Below are positions 13,522 to 41,244 of a stretch of DNA of 64,000 nucleotides, one piece after another; position 1 is the stretch's first letter, and the number at the start of each line of letters is the position of its first letter. The notes under the pieces are model-generated. The model made no database searches. It saw only the letters and a program-made list of their open reading frames with translations, and was not told the DNA's origin. The position numbers were made by a program, and so were the translations under genes. This DNA is from Dipteris shenzhenensis (lineage: Eukaryota). Location: NCBI GenBank assembly GCA_047967505.1, contig CM106538.1, one strand, 5' to 3'.

Positions 13522-13637
13522 ATATGGGCCCTTCAAGGGTCCCCTTTAGGGGCAAGAAACATATCGACATTGCACTTGACATACGGGGCATGTCGATATG
13601 GACCTTACCCCTAAACGGGACCCCTCAAGGGCCATAT
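13522..13637. repeat. 116-bp foldback element (about 49-bp inverted arms), MITE-like
   Basis: ATATGGGCCCTTCAAGGGTCCCCTTTAGGGGCAAGAAACATATCGACAT pairs imperfectly with ATGTCGATATGGACCTTACCCCTAAACGGGACCCCTCAAGGGCCATAT. Confidence 0.85.
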
Positions 13638-19435: not shown

Positions 19436-19599
19436 ACTCACGTGATATCATAAGTTCCTCTTGTGAATCCCCCGAGCTAGTCATGTAGACAATCTAACTC
19501 ATTGATGAAGTTGTGTTGGGGCTTTCAATGTAGAGGAGACCTTGATCATGGTAATGTTACCATGCAAACACACATACCATGCCATTTGCTTTGCAGCTG

Positions 19600-22576
19600 C
19601 ATGCTCTATTGGTGGGACCCGATCTCCCATGTTTAGCAATTTGAGCAGATATGTGAAGCCTTTGGAGCTCTCAGGGATCTAGAAATGGCTAATACGTTTG
19701 GTCTCAACTTGGATGGCAAAGTAGGCCAACGGTATAGGGCTCTCACCTCGAAAGAAAAAGTCAACTAGGAGACACTGAGAAAGGCCTTCATTGTGAGGTT
19801 CACCCCCAGTGGACATAAAATGCCCAATTAACTAGTTGTATAAGGTAAAGCAAAATGGCAAGGAATCCCTTTGGGATTACATAGCCAGAATCAAGTGCCT
19901 CAATTCCCATTGTGAACCATACGAGCAGATGAGCGACGAGCGATTGTTGCCCTGTTTTCTCATCAGATTGGCAGACCCAAAGCTGCACGACCACCTGATG
20001 GTTATGAATCCTACCTCCTTCAATCTATGCAGCAAGGTGGCTATTCGTATAAGTGACAATATGATGGATAAGGCTAATTCAGATAAAACCCCAATTCCAT
20101 TAGAAATAGCACCATCAGTCAAGTCTTCTAGTGTGGAAATGATAAAGAAGGAGACCAATGAGACCAAGGGCCTGGATATGTGTTAGCTGGCCTCCAATTT
20201 GCTGAATTAGCTAGGCCAACAATGAAGGTTAGGAACCTCCAAGGAGGCGCCAAGAAACTCCCACTTGTTTCCATGGAGAGACAACATCTGGTGTGGGATA
20301 TGCAACGGCAACCATCCCTGAGTGTCCTCACATGAGGGCAAGGCCGGCACTCTACTGTGCACAATGTCATAGATGGGGAAACTATGATACCTCCCAATGC
20401 CGATTACTGAGGTCCTTGACCCAACCCATGTACCAAATGAGACCCCCATTAGCCCTGATGGCTCCGCCTAATCTCTGAATGCACAAGGTGGCCCTTTGGC
20501 TAGTTCAAGCCAGTACAAGGCCCAACAGGCTCCATTACTGCCACCCATACTAGGCCCTCAACCTCCACTACCTCATATAGCTCTGGTCAATCAAGTATTG
20601 GTAAAGGAAGTGCCCAACAACTAGAAGGAGACGGATCCAGATCATGGACCCCTCGACTACTACCCCTATGAGGAGGGAAGTGCACCCTAAGCACTACCTC
20701 CTTCAAGAGGATTAGGAAGTGCCTGTTTTCTAGACCGCTCCCGTGAACTCAAGGGCTAGAGACCTAAACTCTGTCATTCGTAGACCGATCCAATGCTATA
20801 CCTACCAGGGCCCCCACACGGAAAGTCAATGCCCCTACAGAGGCACTTCAAACTTTCTAGTGTCATGCTTCAAGTGTCAGGGGCCGCACTTCTGGAAGGA
20901 CTGCCTCTATAGGGATCTTACCCCTGCCACTCCTCCCATGACCAGCCCTACACCCTTGTGTGCAGGTGCGAAATCGAGCATCTATTCAAGGACTGTCCCT
21001 TAATAAGACTGACAACCCCAGTCGCCCCACCTAAGAGCACCAGCCTTAACTTGCTTAGTATTGAACAAGGCCAGGTGGCCGCAGTACCATCAAATATCAT
21101 CACAAGGATGCAAGCCAAAGCAATAGGTAAGACAATGAGGAAACTTGCAAGGAAAGATAAAGGTCCGCTACCGCAAGGCCCTAAGGTCCCTCAACATCTG
21201 TAGACCCGGTCCAAGAAGGCCATAAGAGTAGGTGATGGGTTTGACCAGGTGCTCATCCAAGATGGTTTTGATGAGAAGACATCCACCTTCGCCACCTCCT
21301 CTACCTTTGAACGTGCTTCCACCTAGGGTGACCCAGAGGTATCTCCAAGCTTAAAGAGGTAAACAAACTAGTGTAGGCCCAAGGCCTAGCACCCCACCCT
21401 CCTACATAAGGAAACCTATCCTGACCCGGTCCTAGAGAAGAAATACGTAATAGAGGCTCACAACTTGATACAGGACTTCCTAGAAAATTTTGAGCATAGA
21501 CACAAGGCGAGCAGAGGGTTGTGGATACCATCCATCCAGCCCACCTGACGGGCCACCGAGGAGCAAAGGCACTGAAAGTGTCAAAAAAGGTGGAAGAAGA
21601 GGAACGTTTCAGCTTCGATGAGTCAGAAGCTCCAGATCTGATGCAAAAAATGTTCCAAGAGGACCCAATATTGCAAAACCTATAGGAAGAAGGAGACCTT
21701 TATAGTTTCAAGGACCGGTTATCCATGGGAGGAGATCTTCACAAGAACCCTGCCATAGTGCCATCATGGATGCCTTCCTATCGACCGAGGTAAAAATTCT
21801 GATCGCCTCTCAGCTGAGAGGAAATTCCATTTGGGGAGACATATCGAATTGGATAGACAATTCCTACCCCCAGGCCTTGCTAGCCCTAAGGCCAACAAAT
21901 CACCATCGGAGAAGGGGTAGAACTTATCCAAGGTTCCCATCAATAAGCTAGGTCAATACTTTGAGGGTGATGACACAAACGCTACTATCCCCATAACCTA
22001 TCAACACCAAAAGTTTGATGCCATCTTGGATGGGGGAGTGAGAGAGTGTCTGTACCAACGAATGCTAGGTAAAGTGGGGGAAACTTACACTCGAGCAAAC
22101 CCATCTGGTAGTGAAGTTGGCCGATGGTGGAACTGCAAAACCCTTGGGAGTCCGTACTACTAGCATTAACATTAAATTATTTGGATTCACATACCCCATC
22201 ACGTTCGTAGTCATGGACTTCATCTGGTAGTCAAGATATGAGGCCATCCTAGGCAGACCCTTCTTACAAATGTCTGGGCTCATACATGCTATTTGTGGCA
22301 TGAGGAACAAATCATGCAAGTGGACTTGCACACCTACAAGGCCCACCCATTGTCAAGACACCTTTTTGCCTGTGGAATCTGACAAAACTCTCTGGAACAC
22401 ATACTTGAAGCTATTCCAACCATGTGAAAGGGAAGAGGATGAAAAAGAGTCCGATGAATTCTGGTATGCACCTCTTCCTGAGCCAGAATTCTCTCAGAAT
22501 TGGATGCACATCTTAGCCAACATTGATGTTCTAGAGAGAATAGGGTTCCAAATTACTACCCTCGAGGTTGAGGGAA
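19600..22576 (+). pseudogene. gag: gag with five zinc knuckles and first aspartic protease (about 21985-22300)
   Basis: KQNGKESLWDYIARIK gag motif; CFKCQGPHFWKDC and related knuckles; FDAILDGG...VKLADG...PLG...YEAILGRPFL. Confidence 0.85.
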
Positions 22577-22916
22577 TGTTACATCAACTATGATACCGTG
22601 ACATCGGTATAACGGGGAAACCACGAGGGCTTGACAATACTTACCTATGTGGCTAATGGGGTCTAGGGGGAAATCCTAGGCCTAGGTAATTAATGGAAGG
22701 GTGCACTAGTTGAACCTAAAGAGGGGTTTAATGGTAAGGTCCACTTGGACATATGGCACCATGAGGGATGGCCACTTGGGAGGTATTGGGCTAGGAGGGA
22801 GGATTCTAGAGGGAGCCAAAAAAAGAAAGAAGGTTGAGGAGGCTCCAAGAGAAAGGAATCCGTGGTCGGGTGGAACTCAATGCAGAGAAGCCCTCAAGGA
22901 TACAGGTTTCTTAACA
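22577..22916 (+). repeat. 5' LTR of chromovirus
   Basis: TGTTA...TTAACA, direct repeat of 28366-28705. Confidence 0.97.
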
Positions 22917-22917
22917 C

Positions 22918-22929
22918 TGGTATTAGAGC
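22918..22929 (+). promoter_or_regulatory. Primer binding site, tRNA-iMet type (1 mismatch)
   Basis: TGGTATTAGAGC directly after the 5' LTR. Confidence 0.9.
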
Positions 22930-23102
22930 ACAGCGAAAGATTAGCCTTATTGGGTAGCCGCATGTTTTCGAAAGCTTTGAAAGTTGTTATGCAATCCGGT
23001 TTGCTGAGCTATAAAAGATCTGGAAGAAGGACTCGTTAGGAGAGGGATCGACGAGGAGAAGAGGCCACAAATCCTCTCCTTTGGATCCATATTTGAAGGA
23101 TA

Positions 23103-23300
23103 TACTGCGCTATCTCTTGCACCAGCAGGTGCGCTCGGTGTAGTGGAGAGTGCCCACGGATGGCTTGCGAAATCTCTTGCGCAGTGGGACCTTAGCTACT
23201 GTGCTATCTCTTGCACACAGCGGGTACGCTCGGTGTAGTGGAGAGTGCCCACGAGTGGCTTGCAAAATCTCTTGCGCAGTGGGACCTTAGCTACTGCGCT
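23103..23300 (+). repeat. Tandem duplication of about 94 bp in the chromovirus 5' leader
   Basis: TACTGCGCTATCTCTTGCAC...CAGTGGGACCTTAGC at 23103-23196 and 23197-23291. Confidence 0.9.
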
Positions 23301-24030
23301 GCAGATTTGGAGAAGCTATGCACCGTGCAGCTCCGTTTGAAGGCTACGGTTCAGCCATTGTCATCCGAGTGGGACCAGAGAGGGCGTCACCTCTGTGCTA
23401 TAGCATTCACTACCCACGCTCTTGAAGAATTAGAGATTCATACTCTCTGGACTTACAGGCTTTGGAAGAAGGATCGGAGGTTCATCGTTCTCGTTCGATG
23501 GTCGGCCTGCAGAGCAATAGAAATACAAAGAAAAAAGCCACATCATCTAAGGCTACTTTAGCCTTTAAAGAAAGCCACCTCACCCCTCTGTTTTTACCCC
23601 TCGTCATCCAAGGTCTTAAAGTTAATTTCACCTCTTTTGTTTCCAAGATTCATTAGCCTCGCTGATTTCAAGTTTTTTTAAAAAAAAATTTACAATCGAA
23701 TCAAGACATTCGAGATCGAGGGAAGCAAGAAGAGTGGGATCGGGACGAGAGATCAAGAATTAAAAGCGAGAGAGGACGCGTCAGCTTCAAAGACAAATTC
23801 AAGACCATCGAACAAATATCAGGGAAGTGGGCATCATATTTTTCTATTTGATATAAAGCGCTTTGCTTTACATTTTTTGGAAAATATACATTTTTTAAAA
23901 TGACAACTCCAGAAAGGGATGGTAGGATTAGAGAGGCCAAGGAAAGGGCTAGAAAGGGAAAAGTAGTAGTTAGAGAGGAAATACATGAGGAGGTACAAAC
24001 TGAACTGAAACTCAAGAGGATAATGTAATA

Positions 24031-25011
24031 ATGGAGGATATTGATTACGGTGATTATGGAATTCCGTATGCGGAATTCACTAAACTGGAAATTCGAACGC
24101 AAAATATAGAAACACACTTAGGGGTTATCAGTGAAACATTAAAAACCCTAACTGAAGCTATGACTAAGATAGCCGATTCTCAATCAGTATCTATTACTGA
24201 AAAATCACCGATTCCTCCTAATGAAGTTGAGAGGTCTACCTCTCGACTTAGAGAAACCTCGAACATCCTTAAGGACTTAAAACCGCCAATTTTCAATGGG
24301 GAAGAAAAGGAGCGTAATAAAGATGCGATTAATACGTTCTTGCAAAAATGGCAAGACTTTCATCGACCCAGGAATACACCTCCTGAAAATCAAGTCGTGG
24401 AAGCAAGTCTTTCCCTTGGAAATAAAGCCTATAAATGGTGGATGAGCCTCAGGGAGAGTGATAAAATTCCTAGATATTGGACTGAGTTTGAACAAGCCTT
24501 CCTAAAAGAGTTTTTACCGAAAAATGAATTAGAAAGAGCGTGGGAGGCTTGGGATATTTGCACTATGGGTAAAAACACCGTAGTCCAGTACATAGCGAAT
24601 TATAGGGAGGCAGTCCTTAAACTGAAGGGAATTGATGAATTCCAAAAGATAAGGGGTTTTGTGAGAGGTCTCAAAGACACTTATAAGGTTGAAGTGAGAA
24701 GAAATTCTCCAAAAACCTTTGAGGAAGCCATTAAGTATGCCCAAATATATGATGATACGACGGGGAAATTCAAAATTGGAACTTCGGAGCAAATAGGTTT
24801 TGTTCCAAAGTTCAATAAATTTTCCAATTTGAAAAGAAAGGGGCACTTTAAGAAGGAGGTTCCTCAAGTACCACCTAAGAAACCTCAAACACAAAATTAT
24901 CCTCTCTTGAAAAAAGAGGATTATGAAAGGGCCAAGCAAGAAAATCTTTGCTTCAAATGTTTGGGCAAAGACCATGTTGCTTGGAACTGTCCTAAAAATA
25001 AACCAGCGTGA
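24031..25011 (+). CDS. gag: Gag of chromovirus (original start probably ATG 23900, now frameshifted)
   Basis: 326-aa ORF with LKPPIFNG, AYKWW, YWTEFEQAFLKEF and CFKCLGKDHVAWNC knuckle. Confidence 0.9.
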   Translation: MEDIDYGDYGIPYAEFTKLEIRTQNIETHLGVISETLKTLTEAMTKIADSQSVSITEKSPIPPNEVERSTSRLRETSNILKDLKPPIFNGEEKERNKDAINTFLQKWQDFHRPRNTPPENQVVEASLSLGNKAYKWWMSLRESDKIPRYWTEFEQAFLKEFLPKNELERAWEAWDICTMGKNTVVQYIANYREAVLKLKGIDEFQKIRGFVRGLKDTYKVEVRRNSPKTFEEAIKYAQIYDDTTGKFKIGTSEQIGFVPKFNKFSNLKRKGHFKKEVPQVPPKKPQTQNYPLLKKEDYERAKQENLCFKCLGKDHVAWNCPKNKPA

Positions 25012-26716
25012 GCTAAAGCCCCAAATAGACCTCCACAAAAACAAGTGCATGCGGTGCAAGTGTTACCGCTCAATGGTACTGAAAAGTACACTGAGGTAGA
25101 GGTCTATCGTGAGGATAGCACCCACATGTGCTGTCTATCATCGGCAATGTGGCAGCCCACCTTTGGTCCTCATGATTTAATGAGGATGCATGGAAAAATT
25201 AAGGGGCAAAGAGTAAGAGTGATGGTCGATGATAGTGCAACACATAATTTCTTAAACTACTCGTTAGTTAAGAAATTAAAATTGCCTGAGAGTCCCAGTG
25301 CCCATAAATATGTGGTCTCTTTGGCGAAGGGCAGTGATAAAAAAGTTTGGGACACCATGATATATGGTGTAGAGATGGATATTCAAGGCTATCAGGATGC
25401 CTTGGATTTCCAAATCATGCATCTCGATCGAACAGATGTAGTGCTTGGTTGAGAATGGTTGTATAGTCTTGGGCATAGATTACAGAGGAGTTATCTTAAT
25501 AACTCCATCATGTTTGAAAAAGAGGGTAGAGTCTTTCAGATTTAAGGAGAACATGATGTGCCTAATTCTCCTCTTATTTGTTTGATGGAATTGGAACGAC
25601 TACTACACCAAGAACAATGCGAGGTATATCTTTGTGAACTTACTTTTATTGGTGATTTTATGTCTTTTGCATCGGAAAGAAGTAATGTTGTTTTTGATAA
25701 TGTTAAAAAGTATAAATCTTCTTTCAATGATTTAATGTTTGAATTTAAAGATGTTTTTCCACTTGACTTACCTGATGGTTTACCTCCTGAGAGAGAAGTA
25801 GATCATAAAATAGATTTAATTCCTAGATCTACCCCTATTTGTAAACCCCCATATAGGCTTAGTCAAACAGAAGAACGTGAGGTCGAAAGACAATTAACAG
25901 AATATCTTAGGAAGGGCCAAATCCAAACAAGTACTTCACCTTGGTCTACACCAATTTTACTGGTAAAGAAAAAGGATGGTACTATGCGTTTATGCATAGA
26001 TTACCGAGCACTAAATAAAATCACCATAAAAAATAAGTATTTCTAGACGATATCCTTATTTATAGTAAAACCAGAAAAAAACATTTGGAACATTTGCAAA
26101 AAGTATTCCAATTGCTTAGAAATAATTCGCTCTTTGCAAAAGAATCCAAATGTGAATTCTTTGCAAAAGAAGTGAAATACTTGGGACATATAATATCCCA
26201 AGGAGGGGTTCGTATAGACCTTAACAAAGTAAGGGCCATATTGGAATGGCCACATCCTACAAATCCAGAAGAATTACAAATATTCTTAGGTTTGTCAGGA
26301 TTCTATAGGAGATTCATCTAAGATTACGCTAAGATTGCTGTTCCGATGATGGACCAGCTTAAGGGGAAGGGAAGCACCTTCATATGGGATGAACCTCAAA
26401 AGAGAAGTTTTGAAAAATTAAAGGTAACTATAGCGGCAGCTCTTGTCTTAAAAGTAGTGGATCCCAATGAACCATTCATGGTTGAGACAGATGCTAATGA
26501 TTTTGCTATTGGGCCAGTGAAAGCAAAAAGCTAGATCGTGCCCAATGGAATTACTCGGCATATGAAAAAGAACTATATGCTATAGTCTATGCTTTAAAGA
26601 AGTGGAGGCACTATTTATACGGTGCAAAATTTGAGATCATCTTTGATCAAGAAAGTATTAAATGGATTTGTAATCAGCCAGAGCTTAAAGGTAGAAAAGC
26701 TAGATGGGATGAGTTA
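25012..26716 (+). pseudogene. pol: Chromovirus PR-RT-RNase H, disrupted
   Basis: [56 protein letters not shown]; stops plus deletions at about 26040 and 26515. Confidence 0.93.
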
Positions 26717-28354
26717 ATGCAAGAGTTTGATATACAATTGACATATAGGAAAGGGAAGTTTAATGTGGTAGTAGACTCTCTTAGCCGAATGCCAATTGTT
26801 AATGAATTGAGTTTTACTCAATTTCAAAATGATTTCCTAGAGTCCTTAAAAGGGAAATGTGAATTTGATCCTCACTTCTCTGAAATATGGAAAGCAATTA
26901 AAAACAGGGATCCAACTAATCGAGAGGCTTTCACTGAGGAGTCGCATGGAAATGGCGACACACCACAGGTTGGTGATAAAGGACTCAAGTGGAGAAAATA
27001 TACTATTGAAGATGGCTACCTACTCTACAAGGGCAGAGTATGTGTCCCGGATGATAATGACATTAGGCGCCAAATCTTTTTTGAATGTCATGATAGTCCG
27101 AGTGCTGGACACCCGGGAATTCAAAAGACATATGTACTTCTGAAAAGACAATTCTTTTGGCCTGGAATAGGTAAGGACGTCCAAGATTATGTATTGAAGT
27201 GCCAAAAATGCCAGGTCAATAAGGCTGAACACCTTAAGGTAGGAGGTCTCCTACACCCATTGGAGATTCCATCGGGCAAATGGGAAAGCATCTCCATGGA
27301 TTTCATTGTGGGACTACCTAGGACACAGAGGGGGCACAACTCTGTGTGGGTAATTGTGGATCGGTTGACCAAGATGACTAATTTTGTTCCTGTCAATGAA
27401 GATGTTAAAACTCCAGAATTAGCTAGGATATTTGTGAAGCATATCTATAGACTGTATGGGTTACCCGCCGGTATTGTTAGTGACCGGGATAGCAAATTTA
27501 ACAGCCATTTTTGGAGGGCTGTGTTTAAGAGGTTGGAAACTTCATTGAATATGAGCACTGCGGATCATCCACAGAGTGATGGTCAAACTGAAAGGGTCAA
27601 TCAAATCATTGAGGATATGCTTCGAGCATATGTAAATAAACGGCAAACTAATTGGGAACAGTATTTGCCCATATTAGAATTTGCATATAACAGTGCCAAA
27701 CATTCAGCTATAGGTTTTAGTCCATTCATGATGATGTATGGATTTCAACCTAGAGCCCCAATGACAGTGGGACTTGAAAAAGAGAAGGTTCAAGCGGCCA
27801 AAGACTTTCTTGAGGATATGAATCAAATGCTTAAGTTAGCTAAAGATAGCATAAGAAGAGCTCAAGATAGAGCACAAAGTTATGCAAACCCCCACCGTAG
27901 AAAGTTGGAGTTTGAAGTAAATGAGAAAGTCTACCTTAAGGTACCTGAATCTTCAGAATCTCTAAAAATAGGTAAATGTCCGAAGTTATCTCCTAGGTAT
28001 TGTGGACCATTCACAATACTTAAGAGGATTGGAGAACTTGCTTACAAATTAGCCTTACCTAAGGGATGTAGAGTACATCCAGTTTTTCATGTTAGTAGGC
28101 TAAAAAGAAAAGTAGGAGATGATGATAATCTCATTGGAAATGAAGTCCTAGTTGAACTTATTGAACCCGCATCTTTACCACATGAACCAGAAAGAATTTT
28201 AGATACGCAAGAAAAAAGAACGCGACATACTATATGGAAAGAATGTCTGATTAAGTGGAAAGATAGATCTGAAGAGAGTTCAACATGGGAAAAGGTAAGT
28301 AATCTCCAGAGGAGGTTTCCCAATTTCGTTTTCGAGGACGTAAACAATTCTTAA
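26717..28354 (+). CDS. pol: Integrase with C-terminal chromodomain (uninterrupted part of pol)
   Basis: HDSPSAGHPG...CQKCQ, ISMDFIVGLP, IVSDRD, HPQSDGQTERVN, YCGPF, EPERILD...CLIKWKDRSEESSTWE. Confidence 0.95.
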   Translation: MQEFDIQLTYRKGKFNVVVDSLSRMPIVNELSFTQFQNDFLESLKGKCEFDPHFSEIWKAIKNRDPTNREAFTEESHGNGDTPQVGDKGLKWRKYTIEDGYLLYKGRVCVPDDNDIRRQIFFECHDSPSAGHPGIQKTYVLLKRQFFWPGIGKDVQDYVLKCQKCQVNKAEHLKVGGLLHPLEIPSGKWESISMDFIVGLPRTQRGHNSVWVIVDRLTKMTNFVPVNEDVKTPELARIFVKHIYRLYGLPAGIVSDRDSKFNSHFWRAVFKRLETSLNMSTADHPQSDGQTERVNQIIEDMLRAYVNKRQTNWEQYLPILEFAYNSAKHSAIGFSPFMMMYGFQPRAPMTVGLEKEKVQAAKDFLEDMNQMLKLAKDSIRRAQDRAQSYANPHRRKLEFEVNEKVYLKVPESSESLKIGKCPKLSPRYCGPFTILKRIGELAYKLALPKGCRVHPVFHVSRLKRKVGDDDNLIGNEVLVELIEPASLPHEPERILDTQEKRTRHTIWKECLIKWKDRSEESSTWEKVSNLQRRFPNFVFEDVNNS

Positions 28355-28365
28355 GGGGGAGGGAA

Positions 28366-28705
28366 TGTTACATCAACTATGATACCGTGACATCGGTATA
28401 ATGGGGAAACCACGAGGGCTTGACAATACTTACCTATGTGGCTAATAGGGTCTAGGGGGAAATCCTAGGCCTAGGTAATTAATGGAAGGGTGCACTAGTT
28501 GAACCTAAAGAGGGGTTTAATGGTAAGGTCCACTTGGACATATGGCACCATGAGGGATGGCCACTTGGGAGGTATTGGGCTAGGAGGGAGTATTCTAGAG
28601 GGAGCCAAAAAAAGAAAGAAGGTTGAGGAGGCTCCAAGAGAAAGGAATCCGTGGTCGGGTGGAACTCAATGCAGAGAAGCCCTCGAGGATACAGGTTTCT
28701 TAACA
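28366..28705 (+). repeat. 3' LTR of chromovirus
   Basis: Direct repeat of 22577-22916 with about 4 substitutions. Confidence 0.97.
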
Positions 28706-29099
28706 GGGAATGACCTCGATGGTCCGAGGATGGTCCCCCTTATAATGCTTAATATGCTCAAACCCCATGAGGTGAACAAAGGGATAGTAAGGGTCAAATC
28801 AGACCTCCACTGGCTATCATACGTAGATGCCATGACCGCTCACCATGAGTTCTCTTCCAATTGGGGAGCTAGGGTGAGCAAGATAGCCTCCCCGGTTGGC
28901 TCTATAAGTGCAAGGTAAGAGACCCCTTTAGGTCCAAAACTCCCTTTATCTAAAAGCTCAATTAAGGCCAAAAGGACCACTTCTCCTGCAGAAATAGAGG
29001 AGGACGCTGAAGAGAAGGAAGACCTACGACAAGCATTAGCCTACTACAAGGCCTACATGATCGAGGATTGCAAGATCTTATACCAATAGGCCAAGAGAT

Positions 29100-31890
29100 A
29101 ATAAGAAGATGGGTGCTCCCAAGGATATGAAGACCCAGCTCTAGTCAAGGAGGTAAACTTGGCTCTGAAAGGGCAGGAACCCCCAGCCTATATTTGTCTC
29201 GCCGATGGTCTCACCCCAAAGGAGGAGAATGCTTTGATAGCTCTCCTACAAGAATACAAGGACTGCTTGGCTTGGAAATACACCGATATGAAAGGGGTGC
29301 CCATTGAAGTAGTTCAACACATGATCCCCACGCTAGACGATGCCAGGCCGGTACGTCAATGCCCCTACCCTATGAATCCCAAGTACGCACTCATAGTGAG
29401 GGAGGAAATCCATTCATCTATGAGATTGAGCATTGAAGAAGAATGAAAAAATTAGAGTATGTGTGGATTTGAAAAAAGTTAACCCTGCTAGGCATGACCA
29501 CTACCCCTTGCCATTCACGGAACATGTCCTGGAAAGGGTAGCCAGAAAGGAAGCCTATAGCTTCCTAGACAGATTTTTTGGTTACAACCAAGTGTCCATC
29601 GCCCTACACGATCAACATAAAACAACCTTCACAATCGATTGAGGTGTGTATGTAGCTAGAGTTATGATATTTGGGTTGCTCGATGCACCTGCCACGTTCC
29701 AACGGATGATGATCATGGTATTCAAGGAGTACCTAAGAGACTTTGTGGAAGTCTTCTTGGATGACATATGCGTGAACTCAACGTGGGATGATCACCTGAA
29801 ATATCTCAGACTCAGGAGAAGTGCCAATTATACCACATATCCCTCACCTCTCTTAAGTGCCAAACATGGTGTAATTCTCGGCCACATAGTGTCCCAGAAT
29901 GGAATCTCTATGGATCACAAAAAAATCAAACTCATCTTGGAATTACCACCCCCCACCAATGCCAAGGGAGTCCAATGATTTACTGGCCACACAGGCTAGG
30001 TTCATCTTGTTCTATGCGAACATGGCCTGCCCATTATACTAGCTGCTAGTATCCTTTAAGTGGACTGGGGAATGCCAAAAATCCTTTGAAACCCTCAAAC
30101 TAGCCCTTCCCACCACACCGATGTTGAGAGCATCTGACTTGGATCTAATATTCCACATCCATATCGATGCTTCCAACTTTGCTATCAGGTGTCTGCTAGC
30201 CCAACCAAGGGAGAATAACTTAGACTACCCGGTGTACTTTGTGAGCCATCAATTGAATGAGGCCGAGATCAACTACACAACAACTAAGAGGGAAGGTATG
30301 GCCATGGTCTATGCAGTCAAGAAGTTTAGGCACTACTTGTTAGCCAACAAGTTCGTCTTCTTCATGGACCACCAAGCATTGTTATACTTGGTCAACAAGC
30401 CATGCATGATGGGGCGCATCACTAGGTGGATGCTAATCCTCTATGAGTTTGACTTCACAATGGTTGTATGTAAAGGGAAGATCCATGTCCTAGCCCACCG
30501 CCTGTCGAGAATCCCAAACGGCGAAGCCCCAATGGGAGTCAAAGATGACCTCCCTGATACTTCCTTATTCTTCATCAACATCATACGTGAATGGGCCACC
30601 GAGATCGGTCACTACCTAGTGAATAGCCTACCCCTGTACCAAGCTCTTAAGAAAGATAGAGACCACAAACTCATTAAGGATGCAGTGCCGTATCAGCTAA
30701 TTGTAGGCCAACTATACCGCATGGGCAAGGATGGCATCATGTGAAGATGTGTGTGTGAGCACGAATACATCAAGGTGCTTAAGGGAGACCACTCTGGAAT
30801 TGCAGGGGGGCATTTTTCCACTGCTGATGTTATAGCACATAAGGTACTCTAAGTTGGCCTTTGGTGGCCGACTCTCTTCAGAGATGTAGTCGAATTCATA
30901 AAGCGGTGCAACCCCTGCGAGCATGTACAAATCCCACATATGGTGGACATGATGCCCTTAATCGGATTCTTAAATGGTCAACCCTTTGAGAAATGGGACA
31001 TCAATTTCATTGGACCCATAAGTCTAGCAACTAAGGGAACCGGGGCCAGATACATCATCTTGGCCACCACAAATTACTTTACTAAATGGATAGAAGGGAG
31101 AGCCACCGTGAAGGTAGATGTGAGATCCACCGCCAAATTTTTATATGAACAAGTTACCACGTGGTTTGAATGTGAATGAGGAACCCATTTCCTCATCGAA
31201 ATGATAGCAGTCCTGACTATTGAATTCATGATCATACATAGGAAGTCAACACCATACTATCCTAGGGCGAATGGCTTGGCTGAGAGCTCCAATAAAACTT
31301 GCTATAAGATCATAACTTGTACAATAGAGGCTAGTTTTACTGACTAGTAGCATAAGCTCATTATAGCATTATGGGCCTACAGAACATCCTACAAGGTGGC
31401 CACACACTGTAATCCCTTCAGCCTAGCCTTTGGGGTAGAGGCGGTTATGCCAATGGACTATGTAGTGCCTAGCCTCCATCTTACCGTCAAAAGGAAGAAT
31501 GCATTGGAAAAATGGTTAGTCGACCTTGAAAGGTTGGAAGACACAAGGTTGCGTGTAGCCTACTGCCTTTGGGTGGAGAAGGCCTAACGCAAAAAGTGGT
31601 TTGACTGCAACCTCAAGAACAAAGACCTTGTAGAGGGAGATTTGGGACTCCTCTATAGCATCCACAATACCAAGTGTAAGCTCAAGTACTGAGGTATGGG
31701 TCCCTACCATGTGGTTGAGATCACTCCACAAGGGGCGTGCAGAAAAGCCACCCTTGATGGAATAGAAATGAATGGTTACCTTAATGGGAGAAAATTAGAA
31801 AGATACTACAGACCATTCACACTGCCTACCCTTCAAGCCATCCATAGAGAAAGAGAACTCAAGGCCGAGGTAGCCAAGATGAAATGCTAG
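29100..31890 (+). pseudogene. pol: RT-RNase H-integrase of the old gypsy
   Basis: IRVCVDLKKVN, DHYPLPF, GYNQV, FLDDICV, HIDASNFA, KKFRHYLL, PFEKWDINFIGP, YYPRANGLAE, GPY module. Confidence 0.93.
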
Positions 31891-31980
31891 GCCATCAAAG
31901 AAGATAGATCACGTAATGCTAAGCTCAGACAGTGTAAGCAAATGACACTACTTAAGGCAACACTTGAACAACCAGGACTA

Positions 31981-32360
31981 GTAGATGAGCTAATGATAGG
32001 ACCGGCTAGGTTGCATGTTCAACTGCAGGGCCCACACATGTTCATTAGAGCACTCATGGATCTGAGAGGTGAGCCACAACTTCATCTCCCATGAAGTATG
32101 GGAAAAGCTACAAGTACCCCTAAACATCACTGTTGCTTCAATAAGGGCTATCAATGGCCAACTCATAAGCACCTTGGGTTTTGTGAACTTAAGTCTAACG
32201 ATTGTTTGCCAAGTAGTAGAAATATGCTTTTATGTTTCCCCATAGAAGCAATTGACAAACAGATCAAGGACTTGGTGTTATGCCATGAACTGTCAGATAG
32301 ACTGGCATGCCCAGACAGCTTCTCTCACAAATGGTGGTAGAACTGTGGTAGTTCCACTGC
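31981..32360 (+). pseudogene. Second retropepsin-like aspartic protease domain downstream of integrase
   Basis: Manual translation across frameshifts: FIRALMDL(R/G)VSHNFISHEVWEKL...IRAINGQLISTLGFVNLSLTI...ICFYV...RTWCYAMNCQIDW. Confidence 0.75.
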
Positions 32361-34008
32361 GTGAACCAAGTCCTGCTCCTTCAGTTTCACCCTCGCCAAC
32401 CCAAGACAAAGAAGTTATACAAAGAGTGGACCTGAAGCCCGATCCACCTCCAATCCCCCAAAAAAAGTCTAACATCGAAGGGAATAGAAGGCCAACCATT
32501 GTGGAAACTCGATGCTATTGCCGATTTTGCCGCCATTGGCATCCCCCACTCAGGAAAGTCGTGAATAGCAAGTACAAGAGGCTATTCTCTATGTCAATGC
32601 TACTTCAACCAGAATCGACGCCCAGAGGGAATCCAAGCAGCACAAAAGTCCCTAATCTCTCCAGAGACGTCTCTACCAAAAGCATTCTTGCCAAGAAGAA
32701 GGACACAATGCCATCCTGTGCTTCGGACTCCATACTCCAATCCACCTCCTCAACCACAACATCCCCCCAAGCACTGGGCCCCCACCAAGACCAAGGCAAG
32801 CATGTTGTCTGGGTGCTGAAGTTTAAGTTACAAATAGCAAAGATTCTGAAGGTAGCAACACAAGAACCTGTGTCGACCCAGAACCACTAGAACCTACCGA
32901 CGAACTGACCGCATCAAACAAGGCCCAAAATCCCAAATGTGCTCTATTACCATGAATCATCCAACTCAACATGAAAATTGCCCAAGACAACGAAGGAGCA
33001 ACACAAGAACCGGCCCCTACAATGCGGGGTGTTACATAAGAACCTCTCTCCAAATCTGAAGGTGCACCCTCAAGGGTAGTTACGATCATACCATCTCCAA
33101 CGGTGTTGTCTAACTCACGAGAGCAAATATCTTCGCCGAAGGCGGTCACACAAGAACCCGCTTCTCTCATGACAAAGGACCATCCCGCGAGGACTCTTTA
33201 TAATGCCAATGTACCTCTGGCATCCAAGATAAGACACAAGCTAGACACATGCTCTACATGGCTTTTAACATGCTATGTAGTAGCAGGATGTCCGTCTACA
33301 CTGCCTGCCTCATGATCATCGAGTCGAGTTCTAGGTGAGTCAGTACAGTAGGCATGTCACCCAACGCACCCGCAGCCCACAAGTCACTACCTTAAACATA
33401 CACACGTGTGCATCCATGGTCAACACTAGGTGATTGGGGTCAATGCGTCCCTTTTGCATTTTTTCACAATCTTGCATACTGACCTCACAATCCGCCCCAC
33501 TCCTCACCTATACACCCCACCCATTCCTTTCTCTCTCCCACCTTCCCACTCCTTCCCACATTTCCCCCTCTTCCCCTTTCCCTACTCTTCTTAGCCAGTA
33601 TCTCACCGGTTGTTGCTATAGCGCTATCTTGCCGACCGTCGCCATTCATAGATCCCATCAACTATCGCCACAATAGTACCCCTCTAGCCATCGCCATTCA
33701 CAGATCCCGCTGACTATTGCCATTCATAGATCCCACCGACCATTGCCATAATAGTACCCCGTCGACCGTCACCATAACAATACCCCACCAACCGCCACCA
33801 TTCACAGATCTTGCCGCCCGTCATCACCATGATAGTACTCTGCCAACCGTCACCTTACAACATCTTGCCAACCGTGTGAGTAGTAAAATCTATATAAAGG
33901 AGACGTATCCCATCGAGTTGTCGCCATAGCAGTTTCTCCCAGACTCTGCTAAAATTCTGTTCTCACAACCCCCTGTCCTCTTCCACACAGCAATCCAACA
34001 ATTAGTTT

Positions 34009-35050
34009 ATGTCCTCAAATTCTTCCTCTTCCACCGATTCCCTCATCACTTGGTTACCCTCATTCTTTCCCATGGATGGATCCGAAAAATGAATTCTTCG
34101 AGTTCGAGATGGAGCTGGGACTCCACCCTCGACCTCCTATTCCACAGGCCATTGATCCCTCCGACTCACGAAGCATGCCCTCTGGCCTCCAAATACCCAA
34201 TTGAGGATTTGCAAGCAAATGAGGAAGTGTCTATGTGACAGGGCACCCAAGAGGGTCCGACAATGGTAGGCACACCCCCCTTAAGGACTTCAAGAAAGCG
34301 CACCTAGGCTCCCACACAAGGAGAGTACAAAGTCTTGCACTCACAAACACACTCACTGCTCGAGGAGGCCTAACTTCAAGAACTAGATGCATGCACCATT
34401 CACTCTCGCTACGCTTATGAGGGGCACGATTACACCCTCCACTACCACATAGGAGTAGCTTACGTGGCACTAAAGGAGCCAGCAGTGCAAGATGCACTAG
34501 TAATTGTTGCAGGCCTGGGCGTAGTGGGGCAGATCGCCTTATCATCACCTCCTTCATCTTCTCCATCTTCTTCCATATTTCACTTTCTTTCTCTCCAAAA
34601 CTTGCAGAGCTTAGTTCTCCCACTACATGCAACCATTGTTGGAATCCTCTCAGCCATAGACTCAGGCTTGTATGGACAAACCTACAATAGCAAGTAATTA
34701 GCCAAACATGGACTATATGTGTCGTGCCACGACAATCTCTATCCACCAAACTTTCATGCAATTCCATTGCCAGAGAACAAACTTCTCTAATTCCTTCAAG
34801 CCACAGTTGAGTGACGGTATAAGAAGTCTTGAGTGCAGGTTTGAGATCATTTGGTCCATTGACCAAGGAGAATTCTACAAAAATCCAGTCGTTTTTCATC
34901 AGCGTTTCTCGAATGAAATTGCGTGCCATTTTGTCCATGCTTCATACTGGATACTCTCCTCAGTAAGAGCTTCCATTTCACTATAAATGCCCCTTGGTTG
35001 CTACTCAAGATAGGTCGAATTTGATCGTCTAGTCTCTGTTTTCTCAATTT
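34009..35050 (+). pseudogene. Decayed 3' extra ORF of the old gypsy, function unknown
   Basis: ATG 34009 (MSSNSSSSTDS) after a pyrimidine-rich spacer; the frame of ORF 34464-34697 extends both ways through TAA/TGA stops compatible with CAA/CGA decay. Confidence 0.45.
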
Positions 35051-35690
35051 GGCGGTCCCTCTCAAATTTCCCTCATGGCTGAAGCATTGCAAGAGGTTAG
35101 ATGCTCAAAAGTTTCAGTACTTTATTGTTTTTACTTGACATTGATGGGTGTTGGTCATATGAGTAGATGGATGAAGTATTTAATGCTCCAAAATTGGTTT
35201 ATCACCTATGAAAATCATGTTTTTCAAGACATATGCTTACATGAGGGAAGAGTATATCATGATTGGCATGATGGTTTCCAATGGATATGATTGGAATGAA
35301 GGTTTCAACTACAACCATTATGCTTCTTATTTCGAAGATGCCATAGTTATGGTTTCAACATCTTTCATGATGTATGAAATGTACTTGCATTTGGTTGATT
35401 GCATTATGCCATACATTCATGAGCTTCTATGTACAAGATTAGACAATGTCCTTGTTTTACTAACAAGTGGAAAGACCCTGTTCATATTTGATTTATGTGA
35501 AGGCATATGGGATGCATGTGATCATGTACTTGAAGTCAACTTTCCTAAAGCTACTCATTTGGTAGCATACCTCATCAAAGGGCAAAGGAGTTACAAAAAG
35601 AAGGGCTACACCAAGAACCTCTCCAATGACAATGTACCTCACACTATGGTAGCTTGGAAGAGAAGGAGGAAAAGGATAAGATATGCCATC

Positions 35691-36315
35691 AAAGGGGGGA
35701 ATTTCCCCACATCTTCAAAGTAGATTTTGTTTGTGTGTGTGGTCAATAAGGGTTCTTTGCCTTGGGATGTCCCCCTCAAATGATTGTTAGTCTTATGTTT
35801 TACCTTGCTGGATCTAAGGGTATTCCCATGCATAGTCATTGTCTATCTCCCAGTTGTAAACCAAGAGTCCTATGAGTGAGTCACAGGTTGGGGCCATGTG
35901 TGTTGGCACATGATGGTGGGCAAGCCATGGAGGATCCCATGTACTACTGCTAAGGGATGAGGTCATCAATTTGTGGGGGGGAATGAAGGACAAATTGATG
36001 TAATGGGATCATACCTAGGGTCCTAAGGTCTATAATTGTGAGTGTGTGAACACATGGTGTGTGTAGGTGTGCTTGAGTTAGGTGTGACTAATGATATATC
36101 AGTTAGTAGGTGTGAATGAGGGAATCTAGGAGTGTGGTGTGTGATTGAGAGATAATTGTGGATCTAGAGATGCTCTCTTGAGCTCACATATGATGTCACA
36201 CTTGGATGTAACTTGTGCCTATATATTGGGCATACCTTTCATGTGAATAAAATCTTCTCCCTTTTCATCATCTTGCTCTCTCCATCTTGGCTCTAGGCTC
36301 CTCCAACACAAAGTG
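35691..36315 (+). mobile_element. Possible PPT plus LTR-like sequence of unassigned family
   Basis: AAAGGGGGGA at 35691-35700, GT-rich tract, AATAAA at about 36246, CT-rich tract ending CCAACA; no partner LTR in the window. Confidence 0.35.
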
Positions 36316-36465
36316 TGCCAACAAAAGGATCCCTTTCTTGCAATCTAAGCATGTATTTCTCAACCCCTTTTGCATCTCTCAGCCTAACACAAGCCTTCAA
36401 CTGTGGCTCACATGAGTAGCCCCACATGAGTTACATTGATGCTCCGTTTGTTGCACATCTACCTA

Positions 36466-36751
36466 GGGGGACACTATGTAAAAAACCCATATAGCACGTG
36501 CAATCAACGGGTATTAAAAAAACCCCTACCTATGCATTTCTATAACCTAAATCCCCTACCTATGGATTTCTATAACCTATATACACCCCTTTTGTAAATG
36601 TTGAGATGATTAAAGTATTCCTTATGTATGACAATTTTCACTTTTTGAATTAAAAAGCCCCTTATGTATGTATATTTTTTGTACTCCATAAAAATATAAA
36701 ACCCCTTCTGTTGATCGCACATGGTATCTTACATATTTCTTAGTGACACCC
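36466..36751. mobile_element. MITE-like element, copy 2 (inverted relative to copy 1)
   Basis: GGGGGACACTA...TAGTGACACCC; reverse complement aligns over the full length of 10694-10949, with an extra internal duplication of about 30 bp. Confidence 0.75.
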
Positions 36752-37589
36752 TTTCCCTCCTCCCTCCCTCCCAGGTAAAACTAGTATCACATCACAACAA
36801 CAATCCATAGATTATGTAGAAAATTACCTCACAGCCATATCCTAAGTCATATACTTGGCTAATGAATTCCTACTTCAACTCTCTTCTCTTGTTGCCTTCT
36901 AGGATTTTTGCCAAAATGGAAAATTTGAAGACAAAATGCTCTTGCACTCATTTATCAATCATAGCTACCAAGAGAGGAAATGTTGGAAATTTGTAGGGGT
37001 TCATACAAACACAAGTTAAAATAGGATGAAAACACTCACAGCTACTCTATCTTTGTTGTAAGTTTATCCACAACAATGACTTGATCCACAATGCCTGCCT
37101 ACATCTATATCCACCTTCTATTGTGCCCATGACATGAGAAATATTTGCCTTTCTTGATTTGATCGACAATGATACTCAAGGGATGTACAAAGTGATTGTT
37201 GTTTTCGTCAAGAATCTTATCTTCCCCTAGAAAGGCTCACCCTTTATTATCACCCTGGTAACATCCACATGCAAAGAATAATTGCAAATGGCACCTTCAG
37301 TAGTTTCTTTTCTACATGGATGATTTTTTCCTATTTGTTTTTCTTAAGAGATAAAGCTTTTATATTGGTATCAAAAGTTTATATGCTCGAATGATTTGAA
37401 ACTTTTATGAGAAAAAATTTAAAGTTTCCTCAAGACTTACAAAATTTTCTTCAACATTCAAAAGAAAATATTGAAAATTGTAATATGTTTTATCAATGTT
37501 ATGAAACTAAAAAGCTTGCTCGATAAAATTTTACCATGATTTTATATTAATATATAAGTATGGCTTCAATAAAAATATCCTTGCTTTGC

Positions 37590-39005
37590 TAGGTACTGTT
37601 GCTCACTCAATCCTATAGTAGGAATGAATTTCCAAGAAGGAAACTACCTCTAATAAAGTTTACCTCATGAAGAGGTTGTTTGAGCTGCAGATCAAGGAAG
37701 GGGTCTCCATTGCTTCTCACTTGAATGAATTCAATATTATTTTCAGCTAGCTTTAAGCTCAGCAGCTGAATTTTGATGTAGAGACTAAGGCAATATTCCT
37801 CTTATGTTCATTGCCATCCTCATGCGATACCTTTTGTACAACTATCACAGTAACTCTGTATCTGGTGGAGTACTGAAGTTTGATGATGTTGTGGGTTGCT
37901 TGTTGGCTTAGGAGATTAGAGGGAAGTCTATGGATGGCAACAAGTAGGATGCAACCTTAAATGTGCAAAGGGGTAGATCATAGTTTAGGGGGAAGTCCCA
38001 AGAAAGAGGGAAGTCTCATAGCAAATCTAGGGCATAGAACATTGAGTGTTACCACCATTGTGGCAAGAAAGGCCACATGAAAAAGGATTGCTACAAGCTG
38101 AAAAAGAGCAAAAGGATAAGAAAAAAAAAGAAAATCGGGGTGCAAATAAGAAGGAAGAGAGTCCAAGGGCAGATAAAGGAAAAGTGAAGATCGAGGAGAT
38201 CAATGTAGTCATCACTGATAATAGTGACAACAATGACATTCTCTTCATGTCTAGTCTACCTGCATAGTTGCTTACCACTTTAGATGACTCATAGGGAATG
38301 GCTCTCCACTTATGATAGTGGAAAGACAGGTTGTGTGCATCTTGGAAATAACTGTGCATGTAACATAGTGGGAGAGGGTGACATAAAGTTTTCTTTTGCA
38401 AATGGGTCTACATTTGTTTTGAAAAATGTGAGACATGTGCCTAAGATGACCAGTCTCATTTTAGCAGGTCAACTAGATGATGTTAGTTTTTAGACCACCT
38501 TTGGCTTTCAAATTTGAAAAATTCAGAAGGGCTCTATGGTTTTGGCAAGAGATGCCAAGTGTGGGACATTGTGTCCCTTACATGTATTAGGGGTGTCTGA
38601 TCATGTTGTTGCAATAACCAAGAAGCCAAGTACTTCTTTGTAGCATTGCCGGTTGGGGCACATGAGCCAGAATGGGATGAAACTCTTATGCCTTTTGGGT
38701 TATGTACAACATTTGAGTTTTTCTGACTTTGAATTTTGTGAGCATTGTCTCTATGGGAAGCAGACTAAATCACCCCATAAAAGAAGGGGAAAGAAAGAGC
38801 TTGAAAAGCTTGATCTGGTGCATTCAGATGTATGTGTGGTCCCATGCCTACATGGTCATTAGGCAGGGCTGAATACTATGTGACATTCATTGATGATGCA
38901 ACTAGGAAAGTATGGTCTTATGCTATAGCTCACAAGAGCGATGTGTTCCAGATATTTTAGAAATGGCTGGCTTTGGCTGAAAATCAATCAGGTAGAATGC
39001 TTGAA
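37590..39005 (+). pseudogene. Copia gag-PR-integrase fragment
   Basis: HLNEFN, CYHCGKKGHMKKDC knuckle, LKNVRHVP, GHMS...[27 protein letters not shown]. Confidence 0.9.
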
Positions 39006-41244
39006 TGTGGGAAAAACTGCATGAAGACAGGTGAAGGAAGCATGAAAAGTATAACCAAAACAATGAGCAAGCACTACAAAATGAATGCAAACCAAGTACA
39101 AATCTATTTTAAATCAATTAGAGGGGCCTTAGCTTGTTATAAATAGCTATAGGTACAAAACCGTGCTCATGCAATAACCATTGCATGTGCTTGCTTCAAC
39201 CAAATTTGCAAACCTCTATCAGAGCAACAAGACTCAACTTGTAGTAGGTAAGAAAAAGAGTGAGCAATAGAGTGAGACTATTATACTTAGACTCGTCAAT
39301 TAAATACTCTAGGACCTCCAATTCACCTTGGCATTTGGTGAACCAACCTCCCAAAATCCTTTTGGAATCTATTGCCATCATGAACCTAGATTGGACCACC
39401 TACTAACTTCTCATTACGTGACTTGTCCATCGGAATATCCACCACTTGGCCCTCGATGGTCCAATCCAATTGCCTAGTCATTAGAACGTAGGTTGTGTGC
39501 TTATTGACTCAGAGTCAACATTTTGCCTTGACTTAGCCAAATGTTTCTAAAACAGCTGAGTGGCAAGTGGTTGTCCTCTTAGAAAAATGGGTGGGGATGA
39601 GGTGGAGGATATGTGGAGGGACCTAGTAAATACGGGGCCAATAGATCCTTGGTAGCTTAAGTTGGTATTGGTGGCCAAGGATATAAGGTATTGATGCCCA
39701 CTAGTACTTCATTAGGATGGATTCACCACTCTTCTTTCCACTGCTTGATCACTTGGACCGGATTAGTTCCTACAATATCCAAATGCACAAATTTATACTT
39801 ATACCATTTATGTTGCACTTGTGGTTTGGTGGTTTTTTGTTGCACTTGTGGTTCGATTCATTTGTTGATTGGGCTACAATAGATCCTAGGAGATTGAGCC
39901 ACATTATCATGGCTTCAGTGGCTATGACTAACAATAGCTGTTCGACCAGTTGGAGCAGCTTAGCCAAATAATTTAGCAAGATCAAAGCGGTGTGTCAAGG
40001 AAGATCACGAACTTGTATCATCAAAGCTTGCCACTCTGCCTTGTAGGTTTCTCCCTAGCGCTCTACTTTGGCTTTAACCATGAGGTCAAATTCATGTATG
40101 GCATAATCATGAAAAGAGACCTCAACTAGAAGATAATCTAAAGGGATCACTTGCACGGGTGGCTAATATCTTAGAGGCCAGGAGGCAGATACAACATTTG
40201 GATCACTTGCTTGTGCCGTATCGAGACTATGGTAAGTAACTTTGAAGTCTTCTCTACTAGAAATTTATCATAAGATATCCATTGAAACAAACATAGTTGT
40301 GAATAGGACTTTAGTAGGAATAGGCAATGGCTTAGTAAATGGAACATGAGGCCATGGTAATCTAGGTGAAAAATGAGAATCGATTGTGCAACCTTAAGTA
40401 GATTGAGTGGCTAATGCTGATGTGCCCAACATCGGATGAGCACCCAAGCAAAAGGCCCCATCTTGGCTTAGCAAATGAAGATGACTCTTTGGGACAAGGA
40501 GGCCATCGGTCTGCCATGCAAACCCAATTGATTGTCGCACCCCAATAGTGCCCACAAAGATAATAGATTCCAACACCGCATCTAGCCAAGGAACCAAGAA
40601 GGCAAGCACCCAGTCCACTACCAGTTTGGCACCTCCATTGGATAATGGGCCCATTACTAATGCCATATTGATGCTATAATATGAGCCTCACCCATCTCAG
40701 GTTGCACCTAGCCAAAGTGATTTTCTCCTATGAAGTAAAGTGACAATTAGGAATGAGTATCACCTTCAACGAATTGATGACATTGTGGTGCATGACCATT
40801 CTATGGCGCACAAAGAAGGCATTCTCCACAACAGATCAAGGAGATTTGAAAGCAAGTGGAACTCATGCTCAAGGAGAACACAGTCAAAAATTTGAAAATT
40901 ATGTGGGTGTATGAGTCCATTTTAATGCAACAAGCTGACAATTCATTTGGATTCAAAACTCCAGTAGCAATCGCTCCCATAAACATTAACTCTTAGACAG
41001 TGCAAGGAGCAACCTTTCATGATGTTGATGGGCGGTGGATATGGGTGTAGCAATTTATGCCTTGAATTCTCAGATTGTAGTTGAGCGAGTTCTAAAAAAA
41101 GATGACTTTAGAGTCGAGGTCGATGCCTTTCTCTAGGGGCGTACTTGCTTGTGTGCATCAGTGAGCTTGGCTCCAATGTTCTTGTCATGTCAAGCCTTTC
41201 TTATCCATTGTATAACTTTTTAGGACCACGTTGCTTGGATCCGC

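Follow-up and report, generated by a model that had tools for sequence, protein, structure and literature searches.

The sequence behind the integrase of an old, decayed Ty3/gypsy retrotransposon, on the + strand of a stretch of the Dipteris shenzhenensis genome, carries the marks of an additional protease. The stretch analysed, here called the window, comprises 64,000 nucleotides of contig CM106538.1 (assembly GCA_047967505.1), and at positions 32005-32364 it probably contains the decayed remains of a second, genuine domain of the retropepsin type (clan AA), which we call PR2, PR1 being the protease-like region at the usual gag-pol site of the same element. To judge from protein sequence, the fusion is a trait of a family: the integrase tail, a linker and PR2 lie in one open frame, collinear with the window, in four relatives (P0005, P0016, P0023 and P0046), representing at least three other diverged lineages.

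The integrase-PR2 junction in relatives

Relatives were sought with the reading of 32066-32890 as query, its TAG read as X, in an exhaustive phmmer search of 1.84 billion representative proteins. Nine matches were returned, of which eight are real (best E 2.8e-12 and 2.7e-11) and one, P0004, was discarded as low-complexity noise; a profile built from these relatives found 40 proteins, bringing the combined total to 44. The relatives were drawn from predicted proteins, so that open frames are favoured in the sample. Conversely, a hidden Markov model (HMM) made from the relatives with the window row excluded, and run against all six-frame open reading frames (ORFs) of the window, recovered both of its PR2 pieces, with E values of 9e-14 and 2e-10, a match that by these values is far above chance. 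When the relatives were aligned to the window by tblastn, a high-scoring pair (HSP) covers the PR2 core in 42 of the 44; the match of P0023 ends at the catalytic-position Asp and that of P0046 takes in integrase and linker only. P0030 and P0046 are the only relatives named in NCBI, under the label Enterobacter cloacae complex, one of them as 'DDE-type integrase/transposase/recombinase, partial'. For an integrase of the plant gypsy type, this label suggests contaminated assemblies.

Both halves of the junction can be followed in P0005 (266 aa), which matches the integrase tail of the window at 52% over 54 residues (E 9e-17) and its PR2 at 36% over 100 residues (E 7e-16), with a spacing between tail and PR2 of about 124 residues as against 121 in the window. 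P0016 aligns by tblastn in two parts, aa 3-154 to 31573-32028 (54%) and aa 171-264 to 32069-32338 (41%); P0023 aligns over aa 3-241 to 31366-32061 at 43% identity, and P0046 over aa 1-282 to 31132-31950 at 50% identity, the latter also giving an rve-core match that stays under the 32.6-bit cut-off (E 0.003, 18.2 bits). The stretch that separates the end of the 54-residue tail segment from the PR2 hairpin measures 45 residues in the window and 48-49 in four relatives.

Catalytic loop and overall identity divide the relatives into three lineages, DPGAS, DLGAN and DTGA(R/K/S), with the window nearest to DPGAS. In ten pairwise comparisons, which are not independent of one another, PR2 identity appears to track integrase-tail identity across the lineages (tail 87% and PR2 69% for P0023-P0046, 59% and 49% for the window and P0016, 59% and 39% for P0005-P0016, 33% and 26% for P0005-P0023), a pattern that fits shared descent of the two parts. 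Further downstream, relatives of two lineages have in common a tail motif, (R/K)(V/I)W(I/V)xKxL(L/V), behind which the DPGAS lineage has VWLPR and then a basic terminus; a profile search for (R/K)(V/I)W(I/V)xKxL(L/V)...VWLPR gave no significant match in the window, the sole scoring part (E 0.08) being the last PR2 strand. In all likelihood, PR2 is a real domain at the level of the family.

The reading frame in the window

A single phase runs through the integrase of the window and into PR2, from 30853 to 32064, and is broken by six stops, at 31177, 31345, 31348, 31585, 31690 and 31888. The last of these, a TAG that closes the integrase-tail ORF, reads as a decay mutation and not as the end of pol, both because it is one among many stops scattered through this phase and because the HSPs of P0016, P0005, P0023 and P0046 cross it, those proteins holding residues there. 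Beyond the TAG the phase continues (31891-32064) via the charged AIKEDRSRNAKLRQCKQ... into ARLHVQLQGPHMFIRALMD, which ends on the GAT codon at 32059-32061. Past the ensuing shift, frame 2 reads (E)VSHNFISHEVWEKL...IRAINGQLISTLGFVNLSLTI...FYVSP, in full (E)VSHNFISHEVWEKLQVPLNITVASIRAINGQLISTLGFVNLSLTIVCQVVEICFYVSP, up to a TAG at 32243-32245, and after it ...RTWCYAMNCQIDW at 32267-32305, within the longer read ...RTWCYAMNCQIDWHAQTASLTNGGRTVVVPL.

Landmarks along the core are SHNFIS (from 32072), the flap-like AING (32147-32158), FYV (from 32228), RTWCY (32267-32281), QIDW (32294-32305) and the last strand, GGRTVVVPL (32333-32359). Where the relatives have EEHV(I/V)LG, the window shows a short deletion in which LG was lost and RTW retained. 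A candidate for the ILG motif in frame 1, DLVLCHE, was dropped, the alignment showing that frame 2 goes on with the short deletion. With its stops, one frameshift and a small deletion, the PR2 copy of the window is dead.

PR2 and the retropepsins

By its sequence PR2 classes as a retropepsin, and we think it very likely that it has the retropepsin fold. Pfam scans of 25 relatives placed four above the curated cut-offs of aspartyl-protease families, P0034 with Asp_protease_2 (32.5), gag-asp_proteas (30.7) and RVP (28.9), and P0023, P0015 and P0010 with Asp_protease_2; eight others gave sub-threshold protease matches and 13 none, the N-terminal half being missing in many of these 13. A profile of 24 relatives searched against the PDB found ASPRV1 at E 7e-5 and the proteases of Rous sarcoma virus and myeloblastosis-associated virus at E 0.1-0.3, and nothing else to E 1, with the D-x-G-A motif of the catalytic loops in register; a profile of fewer relatives gave E 0.05.

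In the 14 alignment rows that span the site, Asp is kept in 13, Gly in 12 and Ala in all 14, and D-x-G-A as a whole in 12, the variants being DTGA (4), DLGA (2), DPGA (6), DPSA (1) and NPRA (1); the window keeps the Asp, its loop being broken by the frameshift at 32062-32065. The flap motif is AING in the window and (A/G/L)I-N-G in the relatives, and most rows of the relatives have (I/V)LG(R/H/C/Q)TW, then QIDW and the last strand. The accessible part of PMC2642776 describes a 'DTG/ILG template' for the proteases of long terminal repeat (LTR) elements that includes an Ala-Asn flap motif and an 'ILG'; the [AG]-I-N-G of PR2 lies at the flap position of this template, and its (I/V)LG corresponds to the 'ILG'.

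Foldseek, run with a monomer model from a 45-row alignment, returned Ddi1 protease domains for all ten top matches (E at least 0.09, template-modelling score 0.27-0.43), and a look-alike search with P0016 in the Atlas returned retropepsin clusters (score 0.75); both are leads only. A homodimer model of P0034 residues 10-130 scored 0.32, the best of three controls scoring 0.00, and so just reaches a mark that was reached by 21 of 30 solved one-chain pairs and by none of 23 solved single chains, and among eukaryotes by 17 of 29 (one of seven for those without an older solved relative). Contact agreement between its runs is at least 75% and the predicted local-distance difference test (pLDDT) score of the partner at least 84; the tightest contact joins T33 to T33 of the two D32-T33-G34 loops, and both chain ends lie in the interface. 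Because retropepsin dimers have already been solved, the pass may merely echo those structures; it speaks for likeness and not for binding.

The original prediction had proposed a second aspartic protease fused in frame past the integrase, as part of the element and not by nested insertion. The frames it quoted, with the TAG, the linker, FIRALMD and its GAT at 32059-32061, the 1-nt shift, the Pro-rich stretch and CYCRFCRHWH, all lie where it had put them, and the proposal itself is borne out by the collinear order of integrase tail, linker and PR2 in the four relatives. These belong to three lineages distinct from each other and from the window, so that the junction is not peculiar to this locus, and relatives match both Pfam aspartyl-protease families and PDB retropepsins. 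The further '(Cys/His)' module of that proposal is not supported: CYCRFCRHWH, rejected as a zinc finger, is not conserved, has no counterpart in the relatives and aligns with their variable Ser/Thr/Pro-rich linker.

The outer element and its surroundings

Table 1. Features of the PR2-bearing (outer) element and of the element inserted into it; positions are those of the window.
Feature	Position	Strand	Basis and remarks
Gag-like region, outer element	19836-21200	+	CX2CX4HX4C knuckle CFKCQGPHFWKDC at 20866-20904; ORF reading and motif scan
PR1, protease-like region at the usual gag-pol site	22020-22330	+	Frameshifted, one stop; AILDGG 22020-22037, LADGG 22117-22131, ILGRPFL 22246-22266
Nested complete chromovirus between PR1 and reverse transcriptase	22577-28705	+	340-bp LTRs at 22577-22916 and 28366-28705; primer-binding-site-like sequence at 22918-22929
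Reverse transcriptase (RT), outer element	29105-29975	+	ORF reading; Pfam RVT_1 on 29643-29975, E 4e-5, 23.9 bits, under the 29.6-bit cut-off
RNase H (RH), outer element	30043-30741	+	Pfam RT_RNaseH E 3e-29, RT_RNaseH_2 E 4e-29
Integrase (IN), outer element	30853-31887	+	Zinc-binding part, core and C-terminal GPY...LERYY tail (31699-31809)
Integrase-tail ORF	31693-31890	+	Reads GMGPYHVVEITPQG...LERYY...KMKC; terminator TAG 31888-31890
TAG closing the 'GPY ORF'	31888-31890	+	Crossed by tblastn HSPs of the four relatives
Charged Lys/Glu/Arg-rich linker, integrase to PR2	31891-32004	+	Integrase phase; aligned with the linkers of P0011 and P0016
PR2 N-terminal hairpin ARLHVQLQGPHMFIRALMD	32005-32061	+	Last residue is the catalytic-position Asp (GAT 32059-32061); HSP of P0023 reaches 32061
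PR2 break	32062-32065	+	+1 frameshift within the D-x-G-A motif; frame comparison and alignment to relatives
PR2 core, frame 2	32066-32364	+	One in-frame TAG, 32243-32245
Open tail past PR2	32365-32890	+	Pro/Ser/Thr-rich; CYCRFCRHWH 32513-32542; no Pfam match

A Pfam scan shows the window to be a mosaic of nested and truncated retroelements, within which the outer element retains the Ty3/gypsy order on one strand, a CCHC knuckle and the PR1 motifs being followed by RT, RNase H and integrase (Table 1). Its gag-like region has no Pfam gag match, and its integrase is matched by Integrase_H2C2 below the 25.5-bit cut-off (E 1e-4, 22.7 bits). Because Pfam finds no Chromo match in 31693-33312, we treat the outer element as a non-chromovirus; the nested element does carry a chromodomain. 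The outer copy is old or truncated.

The complete chromovirus that separates PR1 from RT, not mentioned in the original prediction, is bracketed by the 5-bp target duplication GGGAA, an exact repeat at 22572-22576 and 28706-28710; this clean duplication shows the gag-PR1 and RT-RH-IN-PR2 portions of the outer element to have been joined before the insertion. Over the 300 nt compared, the LTRs of the nested element show about 98% identity, and the element has gag, protease, RT, RNase H, integrase and chromodomain, its RT region being spread over several ORFs.

PR1 is a putative protease, recognised only by where it lies, by the motifs it has and by weak matches in register. Across the six reading frames of the window, the PR2 HMM matches 22069-22227 in register at E 0.011, its best non-self match there, and a match of PR1 to ASPRV1, likewise in register, is not significant (E 1.8). 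The claim that the element already has a protease at the normal site thus holds at the level of the AILDGG, LADGG and ILGRPFL motifs and these alignments, and is left without a Pfam match. As to whether PR2 might itself be the normal protease of another family, no relative was found at a gag-pol site, a weak test given that all 44 relatives are short.

Where did PR2 come from? Its loop context, D-x-G-A-S-H-N-F-I-S, is nearer to that of the nested chromovirus protease (DDSATHNFLN) than to PR1, and the Pfam models that find the nested protease also find PR2 relatives, but not PR1; both points hint that PR2 did not arise by recent copying of PR1. It may have come from the element's own protease by duplication, or have been captured, be it from a different element or from a gene of the host.

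In the sequence downstream of the PR2 tail (32848-33160 and 33531-33801), the motif ACACAAGAACC, read as (A/V)TQEP, recurs every ~145 nt; farther on come a low-complexity run rich in CT and a tandem repeat of 26 nt. The outer element could have its 3' untranslated region here. The segments 7789-8280 and 32591-33312 match weakly at the protein level, with the two pieces in swapped order (E 0.004 and 0.016, about 32% identity), a likeness that is probably compositional, of the Ser/Thr/Pro-rich kind.

Elsewhere in the window, a copia element at 51905-59383 has LTR segments that are 100% identical over the 258 nt compared, an exact tRNA-Met-type primer-binding site (52163-52174) and long open gag, protease-integrase and RT ORFs, and is probably a very recent insertion. 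Copia fragments lie on the minus strand at 4028-7214 and 41535-44906, an exact primer-binding-site motif at 45753-45764 (minus strand) probably belonging to the second. A copia-LTR-like segment at 14540-14836 shares 73% identity with the LTRs at 52018-52120 and 59239-59341 and is followed by a one-mismatch primer-binding-site motif (14709-14720); the copia family at 51905-59383 may thus have a third member here, of greater age. In a tandem array at 12378-12929, the 147-nt period divides into two sub-repeats (about 71-79 nt each), and the 3-8 copies are 71-91% identical.

Proposed role and alternative explanations

What would a protease do at the far end of Pol? We propose that a family of non-chromovirus Ty3/gypsy elements encodes PR2 as a C-terminal extension of its integrase, in a layout that would run from integrase core and GPY/F tail through the charged linker to PR2 (~100 residues) and a variable Ser/Thr/Pro-rich tail. 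Made as the C-terminal end of Gag-Pol, PR2 would fold as a retropepsin half-site and pair with the PR2 of a second polyprotein inside the particle. On the likeliest reading it would be a working module, a second protease cutting Pol at the integrase end, its own release included. The Thr or Ser of the retropepsin loop stabilises dimers. A canonical loop makes catalysis plausible in the DTGA lineage; from the DPGA and DLGA copies this dimer-stabilising residue is missing, and the lineages with these non-canonical loops may be weak enzymes, or PR2 may serve them mainly as a dimerising handle for the integrase. PR2 may also have taken over from PR1. Whether PR2 is catalytically active we see as a nearly balanced question, tilting slightly towards no.

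The full proposal is that a plant non-chromovirus Ty3/gypsy lineage carries a functional second retropepsin on the C terminus of its integrase, that this arrangement is older than the split of at least three sublineages, that it serves as a protease tethered to the integrase or as a dimeriser on which the integrase depends, and that it was missed by surveys which discard repeated domain types or filter protease matches. We put this forward tentatively, with chances a little short of even.

Several observations weigh against our main reading of PR2. The complete GAG-PR1-RT-RH-IN-PR2 order is seen solely in one decayed, LTR-less copy, in which PR1 is recognised at the level of motifs; neither the PR1 pieces nor the PR2 pieces of the window have a Pfam match, whether scanned separately or read through with X, and no direct repeat links 12000-20000 with 32300-41500 under three search settings, so that the outer element yielded no LTRs. 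The 44 relatives are fragments of 60-400 aa on contigs of at most 4.7 kb, mostly from the source 'ena'; no full-length polyprotein with a PR2 tail was found among them, and P0001 and P0005, used as word-indexed queries for longer proteins, returned none, which is weak evidence. Profile scans of genome contigs with two sub-alignments likewise gave matches to the pattern and no relative. An hhalign comparison of the PR2 family gave a probability of 5% with PR1, misaligned, and of 13% with the nested protease, the active sites in register, and is uninformative on the origin of PR2. AlphaFold2 monomer models from alignments of 9 and 45 rows are too poor to use (mean pLDDT 46.3 and 47.9). The second catalytic residue is neither Thr nor Ser in 10 of the 14 rows (Pro in 8, Leu in 2), which makes activity doubtful in the lineages with Pro or Leu there. 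Finally, block-wise mean identity between lineages (nine pairs) is 49% in the integrase tail, 26% in the linker, 28% in the hairpin and 31% in the core; the core is barely above the linker, and the block pattern alone is no proof of constraint.

These last points are also what one would expect if PR2 were a functionless passenger of the whole family, an ancestor having gained a protease fragment behind its integrase by template switching or recombination and the chimera having amplified while PR2 decayed. The non-canonical catalytic residues, down to DPSA and NPRA, the low confidence of the monomer models, the core hardly better conserved than the linker and Pfam scores that fall short of cut-offs in 21 of the 25 scanned relatives all suit such a history. 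Yet lineages at 23-49% PR2 identity retain PR2 in frame with the integrase, open over 266-400 codons, with Asp, Gly, Ala, the flap-like I-N-G, LG(R/H)TW and QIDW kept and a linker of constant length (45-49 residues), and neutral sequence would not be expected to remain open and alignable at such depth, even if a search of predicted proteins favours open frames; we consider a passenger unlikely. Alternatively PR2 could be the sole working protease and PR1 a relic, so that the domain would have moved and not been duplicated. That PR1 has no Pfam match, has D-G-G in its active-site region and is matched weakly by the PR2 HMM and ASPRV1 agrees with this, but its LADGG...ILGRPFL is rightly placed between CCHC knuckle and RT, a damaged active site says little in a copy that is decayed throughout, and the missing Pfam match is to be expected where plant PROT domains are, according to the part of PMC6317226 at hand, poorly represented in databases. 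We rate such a relocation as quite improbable.

Two further explanations are contradicted by the relatives. An accident of this locus, in which the outer element was truncated past its integrase and came to abut a foreign protease fragment in the same frame by chance, might be suspected in a patchwork of nested and truncated elements where the outer LTRs were not found and a shared frame has a one-in-three chance. The identical junction, order and spacing in four open frames elsewhere, together with a linker that itself aligns with P0011 and P0016, make it very improbable. An extra domain other than a protease has a precedent after the integrase of gymnosperm TatIII elements, in the archaeal-type RNase H (aRH) described in the available text of PMC6317226, and the Pfam silence of the window pieces leaves room for one; however, the Pfam families that recur in the relatives are aspartyl-protease families, the other sub-threshold matches being scattered singletons with no RNase H among them, the PDB profile matches are retropepsins only, and the ten top Foldseek matches, weak as they are (E at least 0.09), are all Ddi1 protease domains, so that we give this explanation next to no chance. 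A second retropepsin-type domain carried behind the integrase remains the reading that we prefer.

Comparison with known systems

We found no description of a protease behind an integrase in the full-text literature within reach, which leaves aside subscription journals and supplements; such an absence is no proof. In its accessible portion, a survey of plant elements (PMC6317226) has only aRH and chromodomains as extra polyprotein domains, and it excluded elements in which a domain type is repeated, taking them for probable mispredictions. Another study, a search for novel domains, removed protease-class matches beforehand and considered the fixation of extra domains in LTR retrotransposons rare (PMC9289625, available in part), and reviews of additional ORFs mention no protease in the sections accessible (PMC7264820, PMC11963269). 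Pipelines that remove repeated domains or protease matches would miss an integrase-PR2 architecture, which points to a blind spot in annotation.

The known extra domains, such as the chromodomain, the second RNase H and the demethylase ORF, have each been informative on targeting or replication. PR2 would raise questions of the same kind: does the processing of Pol at its integrase end call for a protease of its own, does the integrase gain a built-in dimeriser that aids its assembly, or is the usual protease being replaced, as was the original RNase H in Tat elements?

Set beside the canonical Ty3/gypsy (Metaviridae) protease, PR2 shares a single lobe of ~100 residues, the D-x-G-A loop, a flap-like Ala/Gly-Ile-Asn-Gly and (I/V)LG (for the template, PMC2642776, consulted in part), as well as, in some of its relatives, matches to the Pfam families gag-asp_proteas, Asp_protease_2 and RVP; a face-to-face dimer is predicted for PR2. 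The canonical enzyme lies between gag and RT, whereas PR2 sits behind the integrase, where Pol has its C terminus; the usual site is occupied by a protease-like region besides, and in two of the three PR2 lineages the second loop residue is Pro or Leu. Among solved structures, the closest in sequence is a host protein, ASPRV1/SASPase (E 7e-5); the top fold matches, which are weak, are to another, Ddi1, whose RVP domain is the retropepsin-like part. Both are host genes without an integrase, whereas PR2 is embedded in a retrotransposon Pol, its relatives being fragments or having integrase tails.

In architecture, PR2 is comparable to the chromodomain of chromoviruses and the aRH of TatIII, each a lineage-specific extra domain directly past the integrase in the same polyprotein, and the aRH that follows INT in gymnosperm TatIII is the closest precedent in the accessible text of PMC6317226. 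PR2 differs from both in being a retropepsin; Pfam finds no chromodomain in the tail of the window, and no RNase H family match either there or in the relatives. The dual RNase H of Tat elements offers a parallel of another kind: the original copy is said to have degenerated, and the second is a foreign one, archaeal in type (PMC6317226 in its available part, citing Ustyantsev et al.). There, as with PR1 and PR2, a core enzymatic domain occurs twice in one Pol, and the question of which protease does the work has its counterpart. The enzyme is a different one, and a 'dual protease' Pol, if the proposal is true, would be the counterpart of the dual RNase H of Tat.

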